From: a bacterium
Lineage (GTDB): Bacteria; J088; JAWLBW01
NCBI GenBank assembly: GCA_041690355.1
Contig: JAWLHK010000006.1
Coordinates: 236,116-256,115 of the forward strand
Direction of reading: 5' to 3'
DNA length: 20,000 nt
The notes beneath the pieces were generated by a model. It worked only from the letters and a program-made list of their open reading frames with translations. It was not told the origin of the DNA and searched no databases. Shown piece after piece: positions 1,552-20,000 of this stretch (position 1 is its first letter; every line of letters starts with the position of its first letter). Position numbers and translations under genes: made by a program.

Positions 1552-2952
1552 ATGATGCGAATGGACGCCGTCGTCGTCGGTGCGGGCACTGCGGGGAGCG
1601 CCGCGGCCTATCACCTGGCACGCAAGGGGCTGCGGGTTCTTCTGCTCGATCGCAGGGGGGCCGATGAAGCGGGCGCGTCCTGGGTCAACGGCGTCCCCCC
1701 GGGGATGTTCGAAGAGGCCGACATTCCGCTGCCCGAAGAACCGGAGCGGTGCGGGCACGCAGGGGCCTTTCACGTGCTCTCTCCCACCGGCGATGCCCGC
1801 GTAACCGTACCGGAAAGTCCCGTGTGGCAGGTCGACATGCGCCTTCTGGTGCGCCGCCTGCAGCGCATGGCCCGCAGCGCCGGCGCCGAAGTGCGCTTCG
1901 GGATGCGGCCGGTGCGGCTCGAGGGGGACGCCAGACGCGGGCGCACCCTCGTCTGCCAGGCCGGTGACGGATCGCAGAAGACCCGGCTGCTGCGCATCGA
2001 AGCCCCCCTGTTTGTGGATGCCGGCGGCCTTGCCGGAGCGCTGGGCCGGTTGCGCCCGGGACGGCCGACGGCGCTGCCGCGCGAAGATCTCTGCGCCGCC
2101 GCGCAGGAGGTGCGCGTCATCCGCGACCGCGCCGGGGCCGAAGCCTTTCTCGAGGCCATGCGGGCCCGCCCGGGCGACGCCCTGGCGTGGACCGGTTTCG
2201 AGGGGGGCTACTCGACGCTCGCCGTCACCGTGACCCCCGACTTCGAAGAGGTGCATCTGCTTACGGGCGCCGCCGCGCTACCCGGTTTGCGCTCGGGAAA
2301 ACGCATTCTCGACGACTTCGCGGCCGAACGGGACTGGGTCGGCGAGACGATCTTCGGCGGGGCAGGGGTCATCCCCATCTGCCGCTCGGCCGATCGCTTT
2401 GTCGAGCCGGGGATTGCCTCGATCGGCGACAGCGCCCTCCATGTCTTTCCGGCGCACGGCAGCGGTATCGGGAACGGTCTGGTGGCCGCGCGCCTTCTCG
2501 CCGAGGCCGTAGGCGAGGCGCTCAATCCGGGGTCGCCCGAGGTGCTCTGGGGCTACCAGTGTGCCTGGCAGCGCGGGCGGGGGGCGGTGGCCGCCGCCTA
2601 CGACGAATTCCGCCGGTTTTCGCAAAGCGTTGCGCCCGGCGATCTGGCGGCCCTGATGGCCTCGGGCTTGCTGCAGGCTGAACTCGTGGCGGCCGGTCTG
2701 GCCCAGGAAATGCCGCGGATCACCCCCGCGCTGATCGCCCGCATGGCCCCCGCCGCGCGCCGGCGGCCGGATCTGGCCGGGCGCCTGCTGCCCGTGGTCG
2801 CACGCATGCGAGCGGTACACGCGCTGTACCGCCGATTTCCCAGACGCGACGGGTGGCGCTATGCGGCATGGCGCGAAGCGGTCACGCGCCTGCGAACGCA
2901 GGGCGCCCCCGGAAAAGACCCCCTGCCGGAGATCGACGTCGAGGCGGCGTGA
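1552..2952 (+). CDS. FAD-dependent oxidoreductase, geranylgeranyl reductase-like
   Basis: N-terminal DAVVVGAGTAG Rossmann motif, VDAGG and IGDSA..FPAHGSGIG fingerprints. GAGGGAG RBS-like sequence upstream of ATG 1552; TACAAT at 1486-1491. Confidence 0.8.
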   Translation: MMRMDAVVVGAGTAGSAAAYHLARKGLRVLLLDRRGADEAGASWVNGVPPGMFEEADIPLPEEPERCGHAGAFHVLSPTGDARVTVPESPVWQVDMRLLVRRLQRMARSAGAEVRFGMRPVRLEGDARRGRTLVCQAGDGSQKTRLLRIEAPLFVDAGGLAGALGRLRPGRPTALPREDLCAAAQEVRVIRDRAGAEAFLEAMRARPGDALAWTGFEGGYSTLAVTVTPDFEEVHLLTGAAALPGLRSGKRILDDFAAERDWVGETIFGGAGVIPICRSADRFVEPGIASIGDSALHVFPAHGSGIGNGLVAARLLAEAVGEALNPGSPEVLWGYQCAWQRGRGAVAAAYDEFRRFSQSVAPGDLAALMASGLLQAELVAAGLAQEMPRITPALIARMAPAARRRPDLAGRLLPVVARMRAVHALYRRFPRRDGWRYAAWREAVTRLRTQGAPGKDPLPEIDVEAA

Positions 2953-2971
2953 CGGACCGGACGTGACCGAA

Positions 2972-3541
2972 ATGCCGGCCGCGCAGGAGATCGGGGGTCG
3001 CGGGCGCACTCTGGCGCGCCTGTTTCTGTGGGTCGCCTTTCCCCTGCAGACGCACCTGGGGCCCGGTTCAAAGGCGCTCCTTTTTCTTCACCAGTGGAGC
3101 TGGGGGCTTCTCAACACATTGGTGGGTCTCGCGGCCGGCGGCGTCGCGGTGATGCTGCTTCACGGGCGGGTCCGCCGGCGCCGGTCGGCCACGGTCGTGC
3201 TCGTTCCCGGGCGGCGTTGGTTCGGCGTCGCCCTCGGCCCGGTGCTGCTGGTCAGCGACCGGGTTCCCGCGCATGTCCTGGATCACGAAACCGGCCACTG
3301 GTTGCAGAGCATCCTTCTGGGGCCGTTCTATTGGCCGGTGATCGGCCTGCCGAGCGTGCTGCATGCCCTCTGGTTCAGGCGTCAGAACAGGGCGCCGCTC
3401 GATTACTACCGCTTCTACACCGAGTCGTGGGCCGACCGCTGGGGCGGCGTGCGAACGGTCGGCGGCATTCGCCGTGCGCCTCCGAGTGCGACGCCATCCC
3501 GTGCAGAGGGGGCGACGCCCGGAGAGTCGGCGGATTCCTGA
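2972..3541 (+). CDS. hypothetical membrane protein with HExxH zincin-like motif
   Basis: LDHETGHWLQS, a hydrophobic LLGPFYWPVIGLPS segment and a downstream YTESWAD. Start is ATG 2972 or GTG 2963, just after the flavoprotein stop. Confidence 0.7.
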   Translation: MPAAQEIGGRGRTLARLFLWVAFPLQTHLGPGSKALLFLHQWSWGLLNTLVGLAAGGVAVMLLHGRVRRRRSATVVLVPGRRWFGVALGPVLLVSDRVPAHVLDHETGHWLQSILLGPFYWPVIGLPSVLHALWFRRQNRAPLDYYRFYTESWADRWGGVRTVGGIRRAPPSATPSRAEGATPGESADS

Positions 3542-3657
3542 CGGGGCCTTGCGCTCACGCCGACCATCGGGCCTTGTTCATCATGGGTTCGGTCACGCGC
3601 ATGGACACACGGAAACCGTTTCCGCTTGTTTTCAGCGCGCCAGAGGGAGACCCGAAG

Positions 3658-4296
3658 ATGGCCGAAAAAGCCCATCGTACGGCGGCGACCGTTCACAAGC
3701 TCAAAGAGAGCGATACGGAATCGTTCTACCAGGTGTTCGACGCGGCCATCTCTGCGCTCGACCGCGCCCGCATCATGTATCTGGTCGGTGGCGGAATTGC
3801 GGCCAAGGCGTTCGGCCGCGAGCGCACGACCCATGACATCGATTTCTTCGTCAAGCCTGCCGACGCCGAACGTTCGCTCGACGCGCTCGCGAATGCGGGA
3901 TTCGACACTGAAATGACGAATCCCAAGTGGCTCTTCAAGGCCTTCAAGGAAGAAGTGATGGTCGACATCATCTTCGCCTCGACGGGCGAGATCCGCGTCG
4001 ACGACCGGATGATGGAGCATTCGCGCATCTCTGACTTCGCCGGGCGTCACGTGCGCACGCTGCCGCCCGAGGATCTGCTCATGATGAAAATCATGATTAC
4101 CGACGAAGACATGCCGCGCCACTGGCACGACGCCCTCGGGGTTATCCGCTGGATCGAAGTGGACTGGGAGTACCTGCTCAGCCGTGCACGCTACGGCCCC
4201 CGCCGGCTGCTCAGTCTGCTGCTGTTCGCCCAGAGCATGGATCTGCAGGTGCCCAACCGCGTCATTCAACGCCTTTTCCGCATGGTCTACGAGTGA
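3658..4296 (+). CDS. nucleotidyltransferase family protein (Pol-beta superfamily, NTP_transf_5/AbiEii-like)
   Basis: LVGGGIA...RTTHDIDFFV (GG plus DxD), third Asp in VDIIF, PEDLLMMK...RHWHD C-terminal motif. GAGGGAG RBS before ATG 3658. Confidence 0.85.
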   Translation: MAEKAHRTAATVHKLKESDTESFYQVFDAAISALDRARIMYLVGGGIAAKAFGRERTTHDIDFFVKPADAERSLDALANAGFDTEMTNPKWLFKAFKEEVMVDIIFASTGEIRVDDRMMEHSRISDFAGRHVRTLPPEDLLMMKIMITDEDMPRHWHDALGVIRWIEVDWEYLLSRARYGPRRLLSLLLFAQSMDLQVPNRVIQRLFRMVYE

Positions 4297-4306
4297 GGGG
4301 CGCACC

Positions 4307-4576
4307 ATGACATCGAGCGATTACCTGGTCGCGCACCTGCGCGAGGCTCTGGCCGCCCATCCGGATGTGGGCATGCTCGATCTCTACCTCGAGGTCACGG
4401 ATCGGTCTGTTCATGTGTCGGGGGTCGTCGATTGCGAGAGCAAGCGCGATGCGGCCCTGGCCCTCGTGCGCCGGATGGCGGCTCCCCGGGAGGTGGTCGA
4501 CAACACGAAGCTGCTCAATCTTCTTCCTTCGGAACCCCCCGAGGTCCTGCATGATCCGTCTGGCGGCCATCGCTGA
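4307..4576 (+). CDS. single BON-domain protein without signal peptide
   Basis: 89 aa: LREALAAHP..., VEV-like LEVTDRSVHVSGVVD, ALALVRRM, EVVDNTKL fit the BON alpha/beta pattern. GAGGGG RBS; starts 10 nt after the NTase stop. Confidence 0.7.
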   Translation: MTSSDYLVAHLREALAAHPDVGMLDLYLEVTDRSVHVSGVVDCESKRDAALALVRRMAAPREVVDNTKLLNLLPSEPPEVLHDPSGGHR

Positions 4577-5309
4577 CACCCATTGCACGCAGCGTACGTG
4601 CGACCGCCTGTCGCCGGTCTGGCGCGAGCTCAACGACAAGGCCGATCTCTTTCTCGTCGCCGGCGACCTCACGACGACCGGCACGGCGCAGGAGGCCGAG
4701 ATTCTCGCCCGCGAGCTGTCGGTGGTCGACGTGCCGGTGGCCGTCGTCCTCGGCAATCATGATTACCATGCCGGAGCCGAGGGCGAAGTCACCCGGATCC
4801 TGCGCGATGCCGGCATTCACGTGCTCGAGGGTGACTCGCTCACGCTGCAGATCAACGGCGAGTCGGTCGGCGTCGCGGGCATCAAGGGGTTCGGCGGCGG
4901 GTTCGTCGGGGCCTGCGCCACCGACTTCGGCGAGCCCGAGATGAAGTCGTTCGTGCGCCACGGTACCCGGGCCGCCGCGCGGCTGCGCGACGCACTGGCG
5001 CGTCTCGACACCGACTATCGCATCGTGCTCATGCACTACAGCCCCATCGACACGACGCTGAATGGAGAGCCGCCGCCGATCTATCCGTTTCTGGGAAGCT
5101 ATCTCTTCGCCGAGGTCGTCGACGAGATCGGGGCCGACCTGGTGCTGCACGGGCATGCGCATCACGGGTCGGAGAAGGGGGTGACCGCGCGGGGCATTCC
5201 CGTGCGCAACGTCGCCATGCCGCTCGTGCGCCATCCCTACGTCATGTTCCACCTCGAGCACACCGAGGGCTACCTGCCGTTTCCGATCCGGCTCACCGAA
5301 CACCGATAG
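4551..5309 (+). CDS. calcineurin-like metallophosphoesterase
   Basis: All five motifs present: ADTH, AGDL, GNHD, MHY, HGHAH. ATG 4551 overlaps the BON gene by 26 nt. Confidence 0.9.
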   Translation: MIRLAAIADTHCTQRTCDRLSPVWRELNDKADLFLVAGDLTTTGTAQEAEILARELSVVDVPVAVVLGNHDYHAGAEGEVTRILRDAGIHVLEGDSLTLQINGESVGVAGIKGFGGGFVGACATDFGEPEMKSFVRHGTRAAARLRDALARLDTDYRIVLMHYSPIDTTLNGEPPPIYPFLGSYLFAEVVDEIGADLVLHGHAHHGSEKGVTARGIPVRNVAMPLVRHPYVMFHLEHTEGYLPFPIRLTEHR

Positions 5310-5314
5310 AAGGA

Positions 5315-5444
5315 CAGTCGTCAGTCTTCGGTCACAGGTCTTCCGTCAGGATTCGCGTCACGTGGCAGACAGACACGATGAAGGGACTCGCCGGCCGACT
5401 GCGGACTGACGACTGACGATTCAGGATGGCGACTGAGGACTGGC
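5315..5444. repeat. inverted pair of heptamer repeat arrays (CAGTCNN / GACTGNN)
   Basis: CAGTCGT-CAGTCTT-CGGTCAC from 5315; GACTGCG-GACTGAC-GACTGAC at 5397-5417; GACTGAG-GACTGGC at 5431-5444. Perfect 12-bp inverted repeat 5315-5326 / 5404-5415. Confidence 0.75.
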
Positions 5445-5487
5445 AACGGAGTCAGCCCTCCGCCACATGTCCATCCGCGGACGCACT

Positions 5488-5496
5488 TGCTACAAT
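5488..5496 (+). promoter_or_regulatory. extended -10 promoter element (TGcTACAAT) for ampG
   Basis: TG at 5488-5489 and TACAAT at 5491-5496, 6 nt before ATG 5503. Confidence 0.6.
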
Positions 5497-5502
5497 GGCG
5501 CG

Positions 5503-6759
5503 ATGGGTTCCATCCTGCGCTCCGTATTCACCGGCCGCATGCTCGTCGTGCTGCTGATGGGTTTCTCGTCCGGGCTTCCGCTCATGCTCATCGGCAGCAC
5601 GCTGAAGGCCTGGCTGCGGCAGGAGGGGATCGACCTGTCGACCATCGGCTTCTTCTCGCTCGCCGGACTTCCGTACACGGTGAAGTTTCTCTGGGCGCCG
5701 CTGATGGATCGCTACGTGCCCGGCCTGCTCGGCCGGCGCCGCGGATGGCTGCTGATCGCGCAGATTGCGCTGATGGCCGGATTCGCCGGCATGGCGAGCA
5801 TCGAGCCGGCGTCGTCGCTGCAGACCCTGGCCGTGCTCGCCGTGATCGTCGGGTTCTTCAGTGCGAGCCAGGACATCGCCGTCGACGCGTACCGCCGCGA
5901 GGTCCTGCGGGATGAGGAGCTCGGCTTCGGATCATCCCTTGCCATCAACGGCTACCGCGTCGCCATTTACGTCTCGGGCGCACTCGCGCTCATTCTGGCG
6001 GGGCTTTTCTCCTGGCAGACGACCTATCTGCTCATGGCCGGCTTCATGGTCATCGGTTTTCTGACGACCATCTTCGCCCCCGAACCGGTGACCGAAGAGG
6101 CGCCGCCGCGCAGTCTGCGCGAAGCGGTCGTCGGACCCTTTCGGGACTTCTTCTCCCGGAAAGGCGCCATCGCGATTCTCGCCTTCATTCTGCTGTACAA
6201 ACTCGGCGACTCGATGGCCAGCGAGATGATGAACCCCTTTTACATCGATACGGGTTTTTCGCTGGAGGAGATCGGGGCCATCGCCAAGACGCTCGGTCTC
6301 ATGGGTACCTTCGGCGGCGCAGCGGTCGGCGGCCTGCTCATGATCCGCCTCGGCATCGCCCGGTCGCTCTGGGTGTTCGGCGTGCTGCAGGCGGTATCCA
6401 CGGCCTGTTTCGCCTTTCTCGCCATGGTCGGCCACAGCATCCCGATGCTGTCGCTGGTCATCGGTTTCGAGACCTTCTCGGGGGGGATGGGGACGGCCGC
6501 CTACGCCGGGTTCATGGCCAGCATCACGAACCGGCGCTTCACGGCCACGCAGTATGCGCTGCTGACCAGCCTCATGGGGGTGCCGCGCGTGATCTTCGGG
6601 GCCACCACCGGCGTGCTCGCCGAGGCCATGGGCTGGCAGGGGTTCTTCGTCTTCTGTACGGTCATCGCGTTGCCGGGCATGCTGCTTCTTCTTCAGGTAG
6701 CCCCGTGGTCGCAGCCGGCCCCCGGAGAGCCGGCGAAGCCTGTGCGCGAATCGGCCTGA
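5503..6759 (+). CDS. ampG: AmpG family muropeptide MFS transporter
   Basis: LMGFSSGLP, GLPYTVKFLWAPLMDRY, GRRRGWLL, SASQDIAVDAYRRE, YKLGD and ATQYALLTS motifs; multiple TM helices. Confidence 0.92.
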   Translation: MGSILRSVFTGRMLVVLLMGFSSGLPLMLIGSTLKAWLRQEGIDLSTIGFFSLAGLPYTVKFLWAPLMDRYVPGLLGRRRGWLLIAQIALMAGFAGMASIEPASSLQTLAVLAVIVGFFSASQDIAVDAYRREVLRDEELGFGSSLAINGYRVAIYVSGALALILAGLFSWQTTYLLMAGFMVIGFLTTIFAPEPVTEEAPPRSLREAVVGPFRDFFSRKGAIAILAFILLYKLGDSMASEMMNPFYIDTGFSLEEIGAIAKTLGLMGTFGGAAVGGLLMIRLGIARSLWVFGVLQAVSTACFAFLAMVGHSIPMLSLVIGFETFSGGMGTAAYAGFMASITNRRFTATQYALLTSLMGVPRVIFGATTGVLAEAMGWQGFFVFCTVIALPGMLLLLQVAPWSQPAPGEPAKPVRESA

Positions 6760-17823: not shown

Positions 17824-18626
17824 ATGAGATATCCGGCAATCCTGTTGATAATGTTGGTCTTGCAGAATTGCGTGCCGGACACGACCACGATAGTGCCAGA
17901 CCTTTCAGGAGAGGTACCCATTTCTTTTGCTCCCGCTCCAGAGGGACCTGTTCTGTTGACTGCCCATATCAAAGTTCGCACGATGGTTGGACAAGAAGAG
18001 GTGCTTCACGCGAAAGGGATCGGATTTTCCGCAACTTACCCCTCCTACCAAATTCCAGACCAGGGCTCAATTCTAGGTGCGACATACCTCGGCGGAGAAG
18101 CCCTCGTTCTCTACTCGACCGAGGGCGATAGCTGGCACCTGGTTGGGACAAGCAGCTTGTTGTCATGGGATTTGGGCCGCCACACCGCGTTTTCACTCCC
18201 TGAAATGCAAGCTTGGGCAAAAGAGGGGGAGGGAGTCGTCACATTCTCTGAGTATGCAACCCGACGCGACATGCGTGTTCCCATCTTTACTCTGGATTTC
18301 GCCAGGAACGTGGCAGAACGTAGCGAGGCTCTTGTGGCTCATTGCCTGCCCGGTGGCTGTTATACGATTGCTCAGGAGAAAGAGGGCTTCTCACTCAATT
18401 CAGTGACAACTACGACTTCTACCTTAACCGTCACAGGATACATCCCTGGCGGGCTTGTACTTGGTGGCCAGGCATTTTCCTGTGCGAGTGCGAAGGATCC
18501 GAATCGCTTCGTTGCTGTGAGCGGCAACGCATATTTCGATGCCCATGTGACTGACAGGACCCTTGCCGTGTCTCTGGCAGATGAACAACTCCTGGCACAG
18601 TTGACAGGTAACAATCGCATCGAGTG
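17824..18626 (+). pseudogene. exported/lipoprotein-like hypothetical gene interrupted by IS256 (reading frame runs on to 18708 inside the IS)
   Basis: Signal-like N-terminus MRYPAILLIMLVLQNC, good RBS and promoter, lower GC. No stop codon before the IS terminus at 18627. Confidence 0.65.
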
Positions 18627-18656
18627 GAGCTTCCGTCAAATTGTGTGTAAATTCGA

Positions 18657-19898
18657 TCAGGCGGCGACCTTCTCCTCTCCCGTCGTGACCTGCACGCCAT
18701 CGCTGTAGGTTGCTCCATCGGCAACCTCTGCCAGCTTGTCAGGCGCGTTGAGTTTGCGGAAATTCTTTTCGGCGACCAGCAGCATTCTCCATATCACGGC
18801 GGTCGCATTCTCGACCTTCTTGAATCGCTTCGCTGCAGTCGTGCGTAGTCGCACGACCGCGAAAGGAGACTCGACGATGTTGGTCGTGCGGAGATGGAGC
18901 CAGTGCTCTTTTGGAAAGCTGTAAAAGGTGACCATGCGCTCCCAGTCATGGTCGAGCAGTGCCGCAGCCTTTTGGTGTTTCTCGCCGCACCAGTCCTGAA
19001 ACTCCTTCTTGCGTCGCTCAGCATCGGCCCGTGTTTCAGCTCTTGGAATGGCCGTCACAAGGCGTCGCGCGACTTCCTGATCCTTCTGGTTGATCCGGTC
19101 CAGGACATTCATCACGCGGTGATTCCAACACCTCTGTTCCCGGGCGTCTGGGAACACGTTCGCCAGCGCCCCCCAGAGCCCCAGATGACCGTCGCCCATC
19201 ACGAGGCGCGGACAGTTCATGCCGCGTCGTTTCAAGTCTCGCAGAATTGCCGACCAGGCTTCAGTCGACTCGCGGTGCCCGGCCTCAACGGTCAACACGG
19301 TCTTGGTGCCGTCGCGTAGACCCGCAATGATCGTCAATAGGGCCGCCTTCTCGCGCTCAAGGCCCGCTTTCACATAGACTCCATCGCACCACAGATATAC
19401 GACGTCGACCCCGTGCAGGGAGCGGTGGCGCCACTGCTCATACTCTGCCTGCCATTTCGTCTTCAGACGCGCGATTGTACTCGCTGACAGAGGGGCGTCG
19501 TCGCCGAGCAGGCCCCGGAGAGCAAGCTCGAAATCCCCGAGCGAGAGGCCATGCAGATAAAGTTCGGGGAGCGCGTCCCCAAGCTCCTGGCTGCGCTTCT
19601 TAAATAGGGGAAGAACCTTACTCTCAAATCGTTCCTCCAGCCCACGTATACGTGGCCGGCGAACCTCGACGGTCCCGCTACTCATGGTGAGCTTACGAGG
19701 CTTGGCGTAGCCGTTACGCGAACCTTCCTGTGGGGCGACCCCATCACGCCGCTCGTACCGGTCGCGGCCAAGAAAGGCCGAAACCTCTTGCTCAAGTATT
19801 TCCTGGATGAAGCCCTGGACCTTCGACCGGACCATCGTTTCGAGGTTATCCCAAGTGATGATTGACACGTCCGTTACGTCTGTGGTGTTCTGTTTCAT
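18657..19898 (-). CDS. IS256-family (mutator-type) DDE transposase
   Basis: RNGY..R.L, LWCDGVY (D), VMGDG (D), QRCWNH (CxxH), RTTNIVES (E); 413 aa, uninterrupted. GAAAGGA RBS. Confidence 0.95.
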   Translation of the reverse strand: MKQNTTDVTDVSIITWDNLETMVRSKVQGFIQEILEQEVSAFLGRDRYERRDGVAPQEGSRNGYAKPRKLTMSSGTVEVRRPRIRGLEERFESKVLPLFKKRSQELGDALPELYLHGLSLGDFELALRGLLGDDAPLSASTIARLKTKWQAEYEQWRHRSLHGVDVVYLWCDGVYVKAGLEREKAALLTIIAGLRDGTKTVLTVEAGHRESTEAWSAILRDLKRRGMNCPRLVMGDGHLGLWGALANVFPDAREQRCWNHRVMNVLDRINQKDQEVARRLVTAIPRAETRADAERRKKEFQDWCGEKHQKAAALLDHDWERMVTFYSFPKEHWLHLRTTNIVESPFAVVRLRTTAAKRFKKVENATAVIWRMLLVAEKNFRKLNAPDKLAEVADGATYSDGVQVTTGEEKVAA

Positions 19899-19966
19899 GG
19901 TGGTGTATTCCTTTCACCGGGCGGCAACCCGGAGGTTTGGTTTGGTTATCGAAAGGATACACCGCC
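19899..19966 (-). promoter_or_regulatory. stem-loop occluding the transposase ribosome-binding site
   Basis: GGTGGTGTATTCCTTTC (19899-19915) is nearly complementary to GAAAGGATACACCGCC (19951-19966); inner CCGGG/CCCGG hairpin at 19917-19932. Confidence 0.7.
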
Positions 19967-20000
19967 TTTTTCGTTTTTACACACCTTTTGAGGCTACCTC

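Follow-up and report, generated by a model that had tools for sequence, protein, structure and literature searches.

What a nucleotidyltransferase (NTase) with a toxin-like fold does when it is locked to a phosphoesterase and a small BON-domain protein is the question raised by three adjacent genes at positions 3658–5309 of a 20,000-nucleotide stretch of bacterial DNA (the window, G000:C6:236116-256115). The trio, in which the NTase is followed by the BON protein and by a calcineurin-like metallophosphoesterase (MPE), is one co-inherited unit, kept as an operon across at least five phyla, and forms a sporadic, strongly conserved and self-contained cassette. It is read here, tentatively and with slightly less than even confidence, as a single-operon enzyme system in which a writer and an eraser would oppose each other on an acceptor, as a switch gated by the BON protein and used under stress. 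The three genes and the signals read from the sequence around them are the following (aa, amino acids).

3658..4296, plus strand: gene 1, NTase (212 aa, P0001; stop codon TGA at 4294–4296; from translation and Pfam)
4307..4576, plus strand: gene 2, BON protein (89 aa, P0002; Pfam BON)
4551..5309, plus strand: gene 3, MPE (252 aa, P0003; Pfam Metallophos)
3643..3649, plus strand: Shine–Dalgarno-like GAGGGAG, 8 nucleotides (nt) 5' of the NTase start codon
4295..4300 and 4541..4544, plus strand: Shine–Dalgarno-like purine runs, GAGGGG for the BON gene and GAGG for the MPE gene
4551..4576, plus strand: overlap, in which the MPE gene begins before the BON gene has ended

An earlier note on this DNA had described three co-oriented genes with a 10-nt gap, a 26-nt overlap and gaps on both flanks, a layout that is exact on the sequence: the NTase and BON genes are spaced by 10 nt (4297–4306), the BON and MPE frames overlap by 26 nt (4551–4576), and intergenic gaps of 116 nt upstream (3542–3657) and 157 nt downstream (5310–5466) border the trio. 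The overlap suggests translational coupling of the BON and MPE genes, and in related loci, too, the end of the BON frame and the start of the MPE are no more than a few bases apart.

When species-representative genomes are scanned with the NTase alignment, 360 relatives are found, and per-locus counts refer to the best 80 loci, which span Acidimicrobiales and other Actinomycetota, Gammaproteobacteria, Myxococcota (including Polyangia), Bdellovibrionota and Dormibacterota/Chloroflexota. The order NTase–BON–MPE, on one strand and within 700 nt, is kept in 69 of them; the others carry the NTase alone (6 loci), NTase and MPE with no BON in the locus (2) or other arrangements (2), and one contig ends after BON. 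This arrangement is far beyond chance. A neighbourhood check had been set beforehand, with lack of co-conservation as the finding that would count against a joint system, and this objection fails because 69 of the 80 loci keep the trio. The occurrence of similar trios in Actinobacteria and myxobacteria, which the earlier note mentions, is likewise borne out, by loci in Acidimicrobiales, Polyangia and Myxococcota and by a plasmid trio in Streptomyces fungicidicus. With single window proteins as queries, the MPE is found in 73 of the 80 loci and BON in 37, and a BON profile iterated on the loci finds BON in 72. Pairwise identities of the NTase and the MPE correlate (r = 0.77 for 68 sequences, from 67 loci plus the window pair), and in the closest relative (L004) the trio and the genes downstream of it are syntenic with the window. 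The NTase occurs in the window genome and in one other genome of its family, in a phylum that is sampled by only five genomes in the compared set. No fourth gene accompanies the trio, as no family of open reading frames (ORFs) of at least 100 aa recurs in more than 10 of the 80 loci, with the exception of an ORF cluster from 24 loci; its example member, antisense and internal to the NTase gene, is a shadow ORF.

Gene fusions link BON to either enzyme. In 15 of the 80 loci, mostly in Bdellovibrionota, no stop codon separates NTase from BON, and the two are joined in frame by linkers of a few to about 65 residues; BON and MPE are in frame with each other in 3. Database proteins of 280–294 aa carry both the NTase and the BON Pfam domains (P0107, P0113, P0115), and Table 1 of the DolP paper (PMC7806268) lists 80 proteins, 77 of them actinobacterial, under the architecture 'one x BON and 1 x DUF2204'. 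Because BON is fused to the NTase, by long flexible linkers, in some lineages and to the MPE in others, it is taken to be the tether of both enzymes. None of the 80 loci holds all three in one frame, and a search for longer proteins with a triple fusion gives 4 matches of 377–394 aa without an MPE domain, which is weak evidence.

Some loci show layouts of their own. In L075, BON and MPE lie on the opposite strand, divergent from the NTase, and a second, different BON-like ORF is found 3' of the NTase. In L027, which carries the NTase alone, a metallo-beta-lactamase-fold gene follows on the same strand (4368–5552, plus strand) with a weak match to the anti-Pycsar protein Apyc1, and it may be a case of the MPE being replaced by another phosphodiesterase fold. 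Among plasmid records, a protein search turned up 128; one of them, the Streptomyces fungicidicus plasmid p1 (L084), has the full annotated trio, with genes for a PhoD-family alkaline phosphatase and a cation P-type ATPase next to it.

The first gene encodes an active-looking small enzyme of the Pol-beta superfamily, whose catalytic residues are intact. Three Pfam families match it above their cut-offs: DUF2204 (PF09970; 8.5e-16, 58.5 bits vs 20.3), NTP_transf_5 (PF14907; 7.2e-10, 39.3 bits vs 31.2) and AbiEii (PF08843; 1.6e-6, 28.7 bits vs 22.5). Its motifs are located as follows.

3790..3843, plus strand: NTase catalytic loop G45-G46 ... G53-R54-x-R56-x-T58-x-D60-x-D62 (hG[GS]...DxD), invariant in a 20-sequence alignment
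3964..3966, plus strand: third catalytic carboxylate of the NTase, D103 (80/80)
4087..4131, plus strand: C-terminal motif of the NTase, K144 ... E150 ... R154-H155-W156-H157-D158, from conservation counts

The superfamily signature (hG[GS], DxD and a third carboxylate) is complete, and the fold agrees with it. The motifs that had been picked out by eye in the earlier note (GG, DxD, a third Asp and K...RHWHD) hold across the family, with G45, G46, D60, D62, D103, K144 and D158 present in 80 of 80 loci, as are R54, R56 and W156, while E150 and H155 are found in 78. Position 58 is Thr in 73 loci, Ser in 6 and Asn in 1, so that Thr or Ser occupies it in 79 of 80. The alignment has 41 invariant columns, and 484 database relatives are found at E <= 0.001, with about 50% identity held across phyla.

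The AlphaFold2 model of the NTase (predicted local distance difference test, pLDDT, 88.1) finds as its best VIA-align match the toxin MenT1 (8an4_A; Z 16.9, root-mean-square deviation 2.2 Å, 167 residues), which leads the next match by 3.5 Z units; the runners-up are ANT(2'')-Ia (Z 13.4) and TM1012 (Z 13.1), with MenT3, LnuA and MenT4 lower. MenT1 also comes first in a Foldseek search of the model, and the family profile matches it in the PDB (E 7e-4). In the profile alignment, T58, D60 and K144 of the NTase fall on T39, D41 and the catalytic lysine region of MenT1. According to PMC11375011, MenT1 is switched off by auto-phosphorylation at T39 and depends on D41 and K137 for nucleotide binding; the text consulted names no phosphatase. 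A second, very weak NTase relative is encoded in the same genome (G000:C7:155252-155731, minus strand, locus L002; 28% identity, E 2.2e-4).

The third gene encodes the partner that could undo such chemistry, an active-looking MPE of a binuclear, phosphodiesterase-type family that is highly conserved and uncharacterised. It matches Metallophos (PF00149) at 3.2e-16, with 60.7 bits vs a cut-off of 21.5, and its motifs, with counts from 67 full-length relatives, are these.

4575..4583, plus strand: MPE motif I, D9-x-H11 (67/67)
4662..4667, plus strand: MPE motif II, G38-D39 (67/67)
4752..4763, plus strand: MPE motif III, G68-N69-H70-D71 (G68, N69 and H70 67/67; D71 66 Asp, 1 Glu)
5034..5036, plus strand: MPE motif IV, H162 (67/67)
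5151..5162, plus strand: MPE motif V, G201-H202-A-H204 (67/67)
4884..4946, plus strand: family-specific glycine-rich loop K112-G-F-G-G-G-F-x-G-A-C ... F-G-E-P-E-M-K132, from the alignment

All five calcineurin-like motifs (DxH, GD, GNH[DE], H and GHxH) are present, as the earlier note had claimed; apart from D71, which is kept in 66 of the 67 relatives, the ligands are kept in all. The alignment has 64% mean column identity and 52 invariant columns, among which are those of the glycine-rich loop (G110, G113–G117, F118, A121, F126, G127 and E128). In the model (pLDDT 88.5), this loop is placed with less confidence (block pLDDT 74 and 64). The motifs DxH/GD/GNHD compare with a PPP phosphatase signature of GDxHG/GDxVDRG/GNHE, and no PPP-type phosphatase entry occurs among the 50 VIA-align matches listed, a listing that excludes no family left off it. 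Those at the top are tied at Z 18–21 (Aq_1956, TT1561, PptH, MPPED2, Lmo2642, Mre11, Rv0805 and GpdQ), and Foldseek returns Rv0805 at E 6e-10, so that the fold indicates a phosphodiesterase-type MPE and nothing narrower. Sequence comparison is no more specific: the MPE sequence has no match in the PDB at E <= 0.01, its profile reaches distant MPEs only (best Lmo2642, 2.6e-5 over about 50 residues), its matches in the ESM Atlas are clusters generically named 'metallophosphoesterase', and none of the three trio proteins falls in a characterised NCBIfam equivalog. Rv0805/CpdA, GpdQ, MPPED2, Lmo2642, PptH, Aq_1956 and TT1561 share the fold and the D-x-H/GD/GNHD/H/GHxH ligands with the window MPE, which differs from them by its own invariant glycine-rich loop (110–132) and by a predicted dedicated BON subunit.

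The protein encoded between the two enzymes matches the BON domain (PF04972) at 3.3e-7, with 30.9 bits vs a cut-off of 27. It is a single-domain protein without a lipobox and, as judged by eye from the translation, its N-terminus is not hydrophobic. The lack of a signal peptide asserted in the earlier note agrees with this and with the NTase–BON fusions found elsewhere, and the protein is taken to be cytosolic from its N-terminus and from the 15 loci in which a cytosolic NTase is fused to it. It shares the BON domain with OsmY, DolP and Kbp, the last of which is also cytosolic according to the part consulted of PMC7806268. It is not of the dual-BON periplasmic type of OsmY and DolP; unlike all three, it is a single 89-aa domain without LysM, and its conserved tail has predicted docking on an enzyme. 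BON is much less conserved than the enzymes, with 42% mean column identity and G39 as the sole invariant position among 24 sequences, so that no Ser, Thr, Tyr, His or Lys is invariant among them.

Predicted as a complex of three chains and scored for BON, the trio gives an ipSAE of 0.74 (runs 0.81, 0.74 and 0.64), and the best of three controls scores 0.00. The mark of this tool is reached by 58 of 80 solved complexes and by 2 of 110 mismatched pairs, a calibration that is only approximate for a three-chain job with author-built alignments. The runs share at least 61% of their contacts, with a BON pLDDT of 78 or more. By sequence, no solved structure is close to the MPE, so the model is unlikely to reproduce a known complex. 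The confident contacts all join BON (residues 70–85, 40–46 and 19–25) to the MPE (227–238 and R219), and the modelled BON segments 19–25 and 40–46 touch MPE residues at or adjoining the metal ligands (11, 42–43, 70 and 204–205). The contacts with the lowest error join BON 78–81 to MPE 231–236 and R219, with E79 facing R219, and they lie in the following segment.

4514..4549, plus strand: BON C-terminal tail, residues 70–81 including E79 and L81, predicted to pair with the last MPE beta-strand

E79 is Glu in 67 of 72 BON sequences, the sole locus in which MPE R219 is replaced (L039, Tyr) also lacks E79, and two other exceptions to the E79/R219 pattern are BON–MPE fusions. BON is therefore predicted, on the strength of the model, to be an MPE subunit whose tail adds a strand to the enzyme and whose domain sits at the rim of its active site. 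Modelling of the pairs, which had been proposed as a check, thus yields a BON–MPE complex; contacts of either partner with the NTase chain are not predicted with confidence, which does not argue against NTase binding. The absence of an invariant nucleophile makes BON look like an adaptor or regulator and not like a modification target.

A link to stress comes from pairs that lack BON. Many of the other plasmid records are two-gene NTase–MPE pairs, carried by chromids and plasmids in Sinorhizobium, Rhizobium, Sphingobium, Azospirillum and Skermanella. Compared with the window trio, these pairs have the same gene order with overlapping or abutting frames and keep the family loop of the MPE; their NTases are longer (257–300 aa as annotated), no BON gene or domain is detected in them, and the genes are still labelled hypothetical. 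In S. meliloti 1021 the pair is SMb20082/SMb20081 (pSymB 92735–94344, minus strand), in which SMb20081 is 41% identical to the window MPE (E 5e-57) and SMb20082 30% identical to the window NTase (E 3e-17), and a BON profile has no match in SMb20082 (probability 0.2%).

Of 8 alphaproteobacterial loci, 6 (five Rhizobiaceae and one Sphingobium) have the motif GGAAC-N16-[CT]GTT at the NTase start or immediately ahead of it, and we take this motif to be the general-stress (EcfG/RpoE2) promoter type of Alphaproteobacteria; it is absent at the Azospirillum and Skermanella loci, with a background in these loci of 0.14 per kb per strand. The motif predicts a transcription start for SMb20082 near pSymB 94285, and SMb_TSS0199 is mapped at 94285 on the minus strand, with boxes GGAACTT/GTGTTG at 94293–94318, in the supplementary sheet of Schlueter et al. 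2013 (PMC3616915); from its boxes and neighbouring rows we infer that this is the RpoE2 sheet. Upon RpoE2 overexpression, SMb20082 and SMb20081 are changed by 4.00 and 2.21 log fold relative to the control, with adjusted P of about 1e-26 and 2e-19, in Data Set S1 of Lang et al. 2018 (PMC6180224), the columns of which are taken as limma output; small genes neighbouring the pair are likewise RpoE2-induced there. SMb20082-type pairs would thus be under RpoE2/EcfG control, as indicated by the S. meliloti data and the promoter motif.

Several further features of these loci were observed. The annotated N-terminus of SMb20082 (L089, pSymB 93442–94344) is uncertain because its start at 94344 precedes the mapped stress start at 94285 and because an alternative-start row in the supplement of PMC3616915 gives a coding sequence of 93442–94260; a second transcription start is at 94399. 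Five Rhizobiaceae loci (L085, L087, L088, L092 and L093) have a second GGAAC-N16/17-CGTT in the opposite direction, toward small divergent hypothetical genes, and the R. lentis and S. meliloti loci each include, no more than about 2 kb away, a long gene for protein-L-isoaspartate O-methyltransferase. The Rhizobiaceae loci look like a small stress-gene neighbourhood.

The model proposed for the trio is built on these parts. The NTase would attach a nucleoside monophosphate (NMP) as a phosphodiester to a hydroxyl acceptor, and the BON-gated phosphodiesterase would strip it off again, with BON holding NTase and MPE together so that both act on the same molecule. An RNA or tRNA 3' end would be the most likely acceptor, because the NTase is kin to MenT1, and a protein or the T58 loop of the NTase itself would be less likely. 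The switch would probably be used in stress or stationary phase, because the rhizobial BON-less pair is driven by a general-stress sigma factor. GlnD combines an NTase with an HD and an ACT domain, and the CCA-adding enzyme with an HD domain and RelA/SpoT are of similar design. By analogy, the trio would share with GlnD the logic of coupling an NTase physically with a metal-dependent phosphohydrolase and a small alpha/beta domain for regulation or sensing, by which nucleotide addition and removal come under common control. The likeness is one of logic only: GlnD has an HD hydrolase and an ACT domain in one protein, whereas the trio has a calcineurin-like MPE and BON, encoded separately or in varying fusions, Pfam detects neither HD nor ACT in it, and it has no sequence relationship to GlnD. 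The chemistry of the trio, its acceptor and the mutual opposition of its enzymes are what we infer. The earlier note had proposed a writer, a target or adaptor, and an eraser; writer and eraser remain the most economical reading and BON would be the adaptor, while a role of BON as the target is not supported, as it has no invariant nucleophile, is absent in some loci and is modelled on the MPE.

Several observations weigh against this model. BON is absent between NTase and MPE in three Myxococcota loci (L051, L066 and L065, the last of which, classed among the other arrangements, has adjoining NTase and MPE genes and a BON-like ORF 2.8 kb away), and a whole alphaproteobacterial subfamily has no detectable BON; judging from these loci, BON is dispensable for the NTase–MPE core. 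Six of the 80 loci carry the NTase alone (L009, L025, L026, L027, L044 and L067), next to mutually unrelated neighbours (HNH, an M74 peptidase, a metallo-beta-lactamase-fold hydrolase, an ABC ATPase, a DNA ligase, and an ECF sigma factor with MGMT). The roles of writer and eraser are deduced from domain chemistry, and the tied fold matches of the MPE span diesterases, nucleases and monoesterases. Its NCBIfam scores are far under every equivalog cut-off (SpdA 29 vs 400, CpdA 15 vs 225), with a best score of 29.4 bits against cut-offs of 56–420 for CpdA, SpdA, YaeI, LpxG/LpxH, ApaH, SbcD and YfcE. All three proteins are acidic (median isoelectric points 5.4, 4.7 and 5.4), which is unusual for an RNA-binding enzyme, and the enzymes could work sequentially, by end healing and then tailing. 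The five Rhizobiaceae promoter matches are not mutually independent, and the stress data concern a distant BON-less subfamily in another phylum, so they may not transfer to the window organism.

In a more specific form, which has only a modest chance of being right, the trio would be a reversible, stress-gated translation brake, in which tRNA 3'-end extension or T58 self-shutoff would be undone by the BON-gated MPE tethered to the NTase. The kinship with MenT1 from which this form starts could also be taken to mean that the trio is a toxin–antidote or abortive-infection module, which we consider unlikely. Here the MenT-like NTase would arrest growth and block tRNA acceptor ends, the BON–MPE antidote would sequester it or reverse its effect, and the antidote would be released or lost upon phage attack or plasmid loss. 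The closest relative by fold and sequence is indeed a toxin, the AbiEii Pfam match is above its cut-off, and the NTase shares with MenT1 (Rv0078A) and the MenT/AbiEii (DUF1814) toxins the compact Pol-beta NTase with a helical C-domain, the GG...DxD core, the aligned Thr of the catalytic loop (T58/T39) and an aligned lysine. The MPE family is also sporadic, with finds in 12 of the 151 genomes sampled from the order of G005 (11 of 150 if G140 is left out) and in 10 of 151 from the phylum of G006, by searches that scored at most 18 first-look candidates per genome and may have missed some copies. The identity of about 50% across phyla, together with varying neighbours, fits a horizontally moving cassette, and copies lie on plasmids and chromids.

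Yet the NTase is only about 19% identical to MenT1 and fits DUF2204/NTP_transf_5 better, and the MenT/AbiEii toxins are paired with a MenA/AbiEi antitoxin (COG5340/COG4861 type), in place of which BON and the MPE adjoin the window NTase. In PADLOC-DB 2.0 the NTase matches AbiEii at E 0.0065 and 0.0096, BON has no match, and the MPE matches PDC-S10 with 38.7 bits, the best stretch covering positions 10–99 of the 223 in the profile; the phage collection holds no MPE match at E <= 1e-10. The surroundings in the window are housekeeping, the MPE family is single-copy in 5 of 5 genomes examined, and the very strong conservation (52 invariant columns in the MPE and 41 in the NTase) and the place of the S. 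meliloti pair in the general-stress regulon are unlike the MenT toxins. The suggestion of the earlier note that the trio might be a toxin–antidote or second-messenger module thus fares poorly, given the weak PADLOC matches, the lack of a phage match, the housekeeping context and the absence of a conserved effector.

The third possibility, an improbable one, is that the enzymes act in sequence on RNA ends, with the MPE removing a 2',3'-cyclic phosphate or 3'-phosphate and the tethered NTase then rebuilding or marking the 3' end, a logic likened to that of Pnkp or of CCA-adding enzymes that carry an HD domain. A BON tether suits stepwise work at a single substrate end, a tRNA 3'-end enzyme is the closest fold match of the NTase, stress induction is consistent with repair, and the best NCBIfam match of the MPE, far below its cut-off, is a 2',3'-cyclic nucleotide monophosphate phosphodiesterase; the MPE domain of Clostridium thermocellum Pnkp does such a job, according to the text consulted of PMC2190708. 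Against this, no ligase, kinase or Hen1-like partner is conserved nearby, the proteins are acidic, and the window holds no RNA gene, since none was found when Rfam families and tRNA genes were sought in it. Telling this explanation apart from opposing activities needs biochemistry.

That BON itself is the covalent target, nucleotidylated by the NTase and de-nucleotidylated by the MPE like PII under GlnD, is very improbable: its gene lies between writer and eraser and is fused to either, its modelled loop 40–46 sits at the rim of the MPE active site and Thr or Ser stands in place of C43 in most BON sequences, but the window and L004 have Cys there and others have Leu, Asn, Asp or Val, G39 is the only invariant residue, and BON is missing from three NTase–MPE loci and from the alphaproteobacterial subfamily. 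A second-messenger system, in which the NTase would make a signal nucleotide, the MPE degrade it and BON sense a cue, has just as slight a chance, since the MPE fold neighbours do include the cyclic-nucleotide phosphodiesterases Rv0805 and Lmo2642, and genes with cNMP-binding domains lie near two relatives (L025 and L086), but the NTase fold is of the small MenT/ANT/Lnu type, with the CD-NTase CdnE at Z 7.4 only, and no effector or receptor gene is conserved with the trio.

Around the trio, the rest of the window is housekeeping, with genes for an FAD oxidoreductase, an MFS transporter, a DUF1285-like protein, a phosphoglucomutase, an alcohol dehydrogenase, an amidase and DnaE, and its G+C content is about 65–70% over most of the length. 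At the far end, where G+C falls to 0.55–0.59 (18001–20000), there is a gene for a Mutator-family (PF00872) transposase (18657–19898, minus strand), which is probably an insertion element. The ORF immediately upstream of the trio (2861–3541, plus strand) encodes 226 aa with a hydrophobic middle and no Pfam match; it is placed outside the unit because its counterpart in L004, recognised by a conserved stretch (3149–3451), lies about 3.3 kb from the trio on the other strand. Between this ORF and the operon, a terminator-like hairpin with a T-rich tail is found at 3610–3624, 34 nt 5' of the NTase start, and just 3' of the MPE stop there is a 19-nt inverted repeat (5315–5333/5397–5415, 84% complementary, 63 nt apart), whose hairpin is a long fold no better than shuffled sequences (z = -1.6). 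Scans of 3000–5700 give no sigma-70-like promoter and two terminator-like sites against 1.4 expected, which is not above chance.

No functional description of the trio or of the NTase–MPE pair was found in the literature searched, with subscription journals and preprint supplements outside the search, and the statement of the earlier note that none was known agrees with the lack of a characterised pathway there. In the same literature, no paper brings the BON domain together with a metallophosphoesterase and a nucleotidyltransferase, and none of the papers listed that combine two of BON domain, calcineurin-like and nucleotidyltransferase deals with the trio, as judged from the listing; DUF2204 occurs only in the architecture table of PMC7806268, in the part consulted; the one paper listed for PF14907, PF09970 or NTP_transf_5 is on phosphonate biosynthesis and was judged unrelated from its title and abstract; SM_b20081 appears only as a row in a BolA expression table; and no paper was found on RpoE2 with a phosphoesterase or on EcfG general stress with a metallophosphoesterase. 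The parts of the trio come from known superfamilies; their partnership and the role of BON are new.

To our knowledge, NTases of the MenT/AbiEii family are known only as toxins held by antitoxins. Finding such a fold locked to a phosphodiesterase and BON in at least five phyla suggests a built-in eraser and a physiological role in place of one in conflict. If the predicted complex is true, a cytosolic BON domain would have its first concrete job, as an enzyme subunit with a defined interface (E79/R219). SMb20082/SMb20081, which is RpoE2-overexpression-induced in the published data set consulted, offers a system, in a harmless and genetically tractable species, in which the core pair can be tested. 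If the trio is a translation brake, the MenT/AbiEii NTase family would have, in the MPE, its first partner that reverses the reaction enzymatically, BON would be the cytosolic sensor or lid of the phosphodiesterase, and a toxin fold would also serve as a chromosomal physiological regulator in the general stress response.

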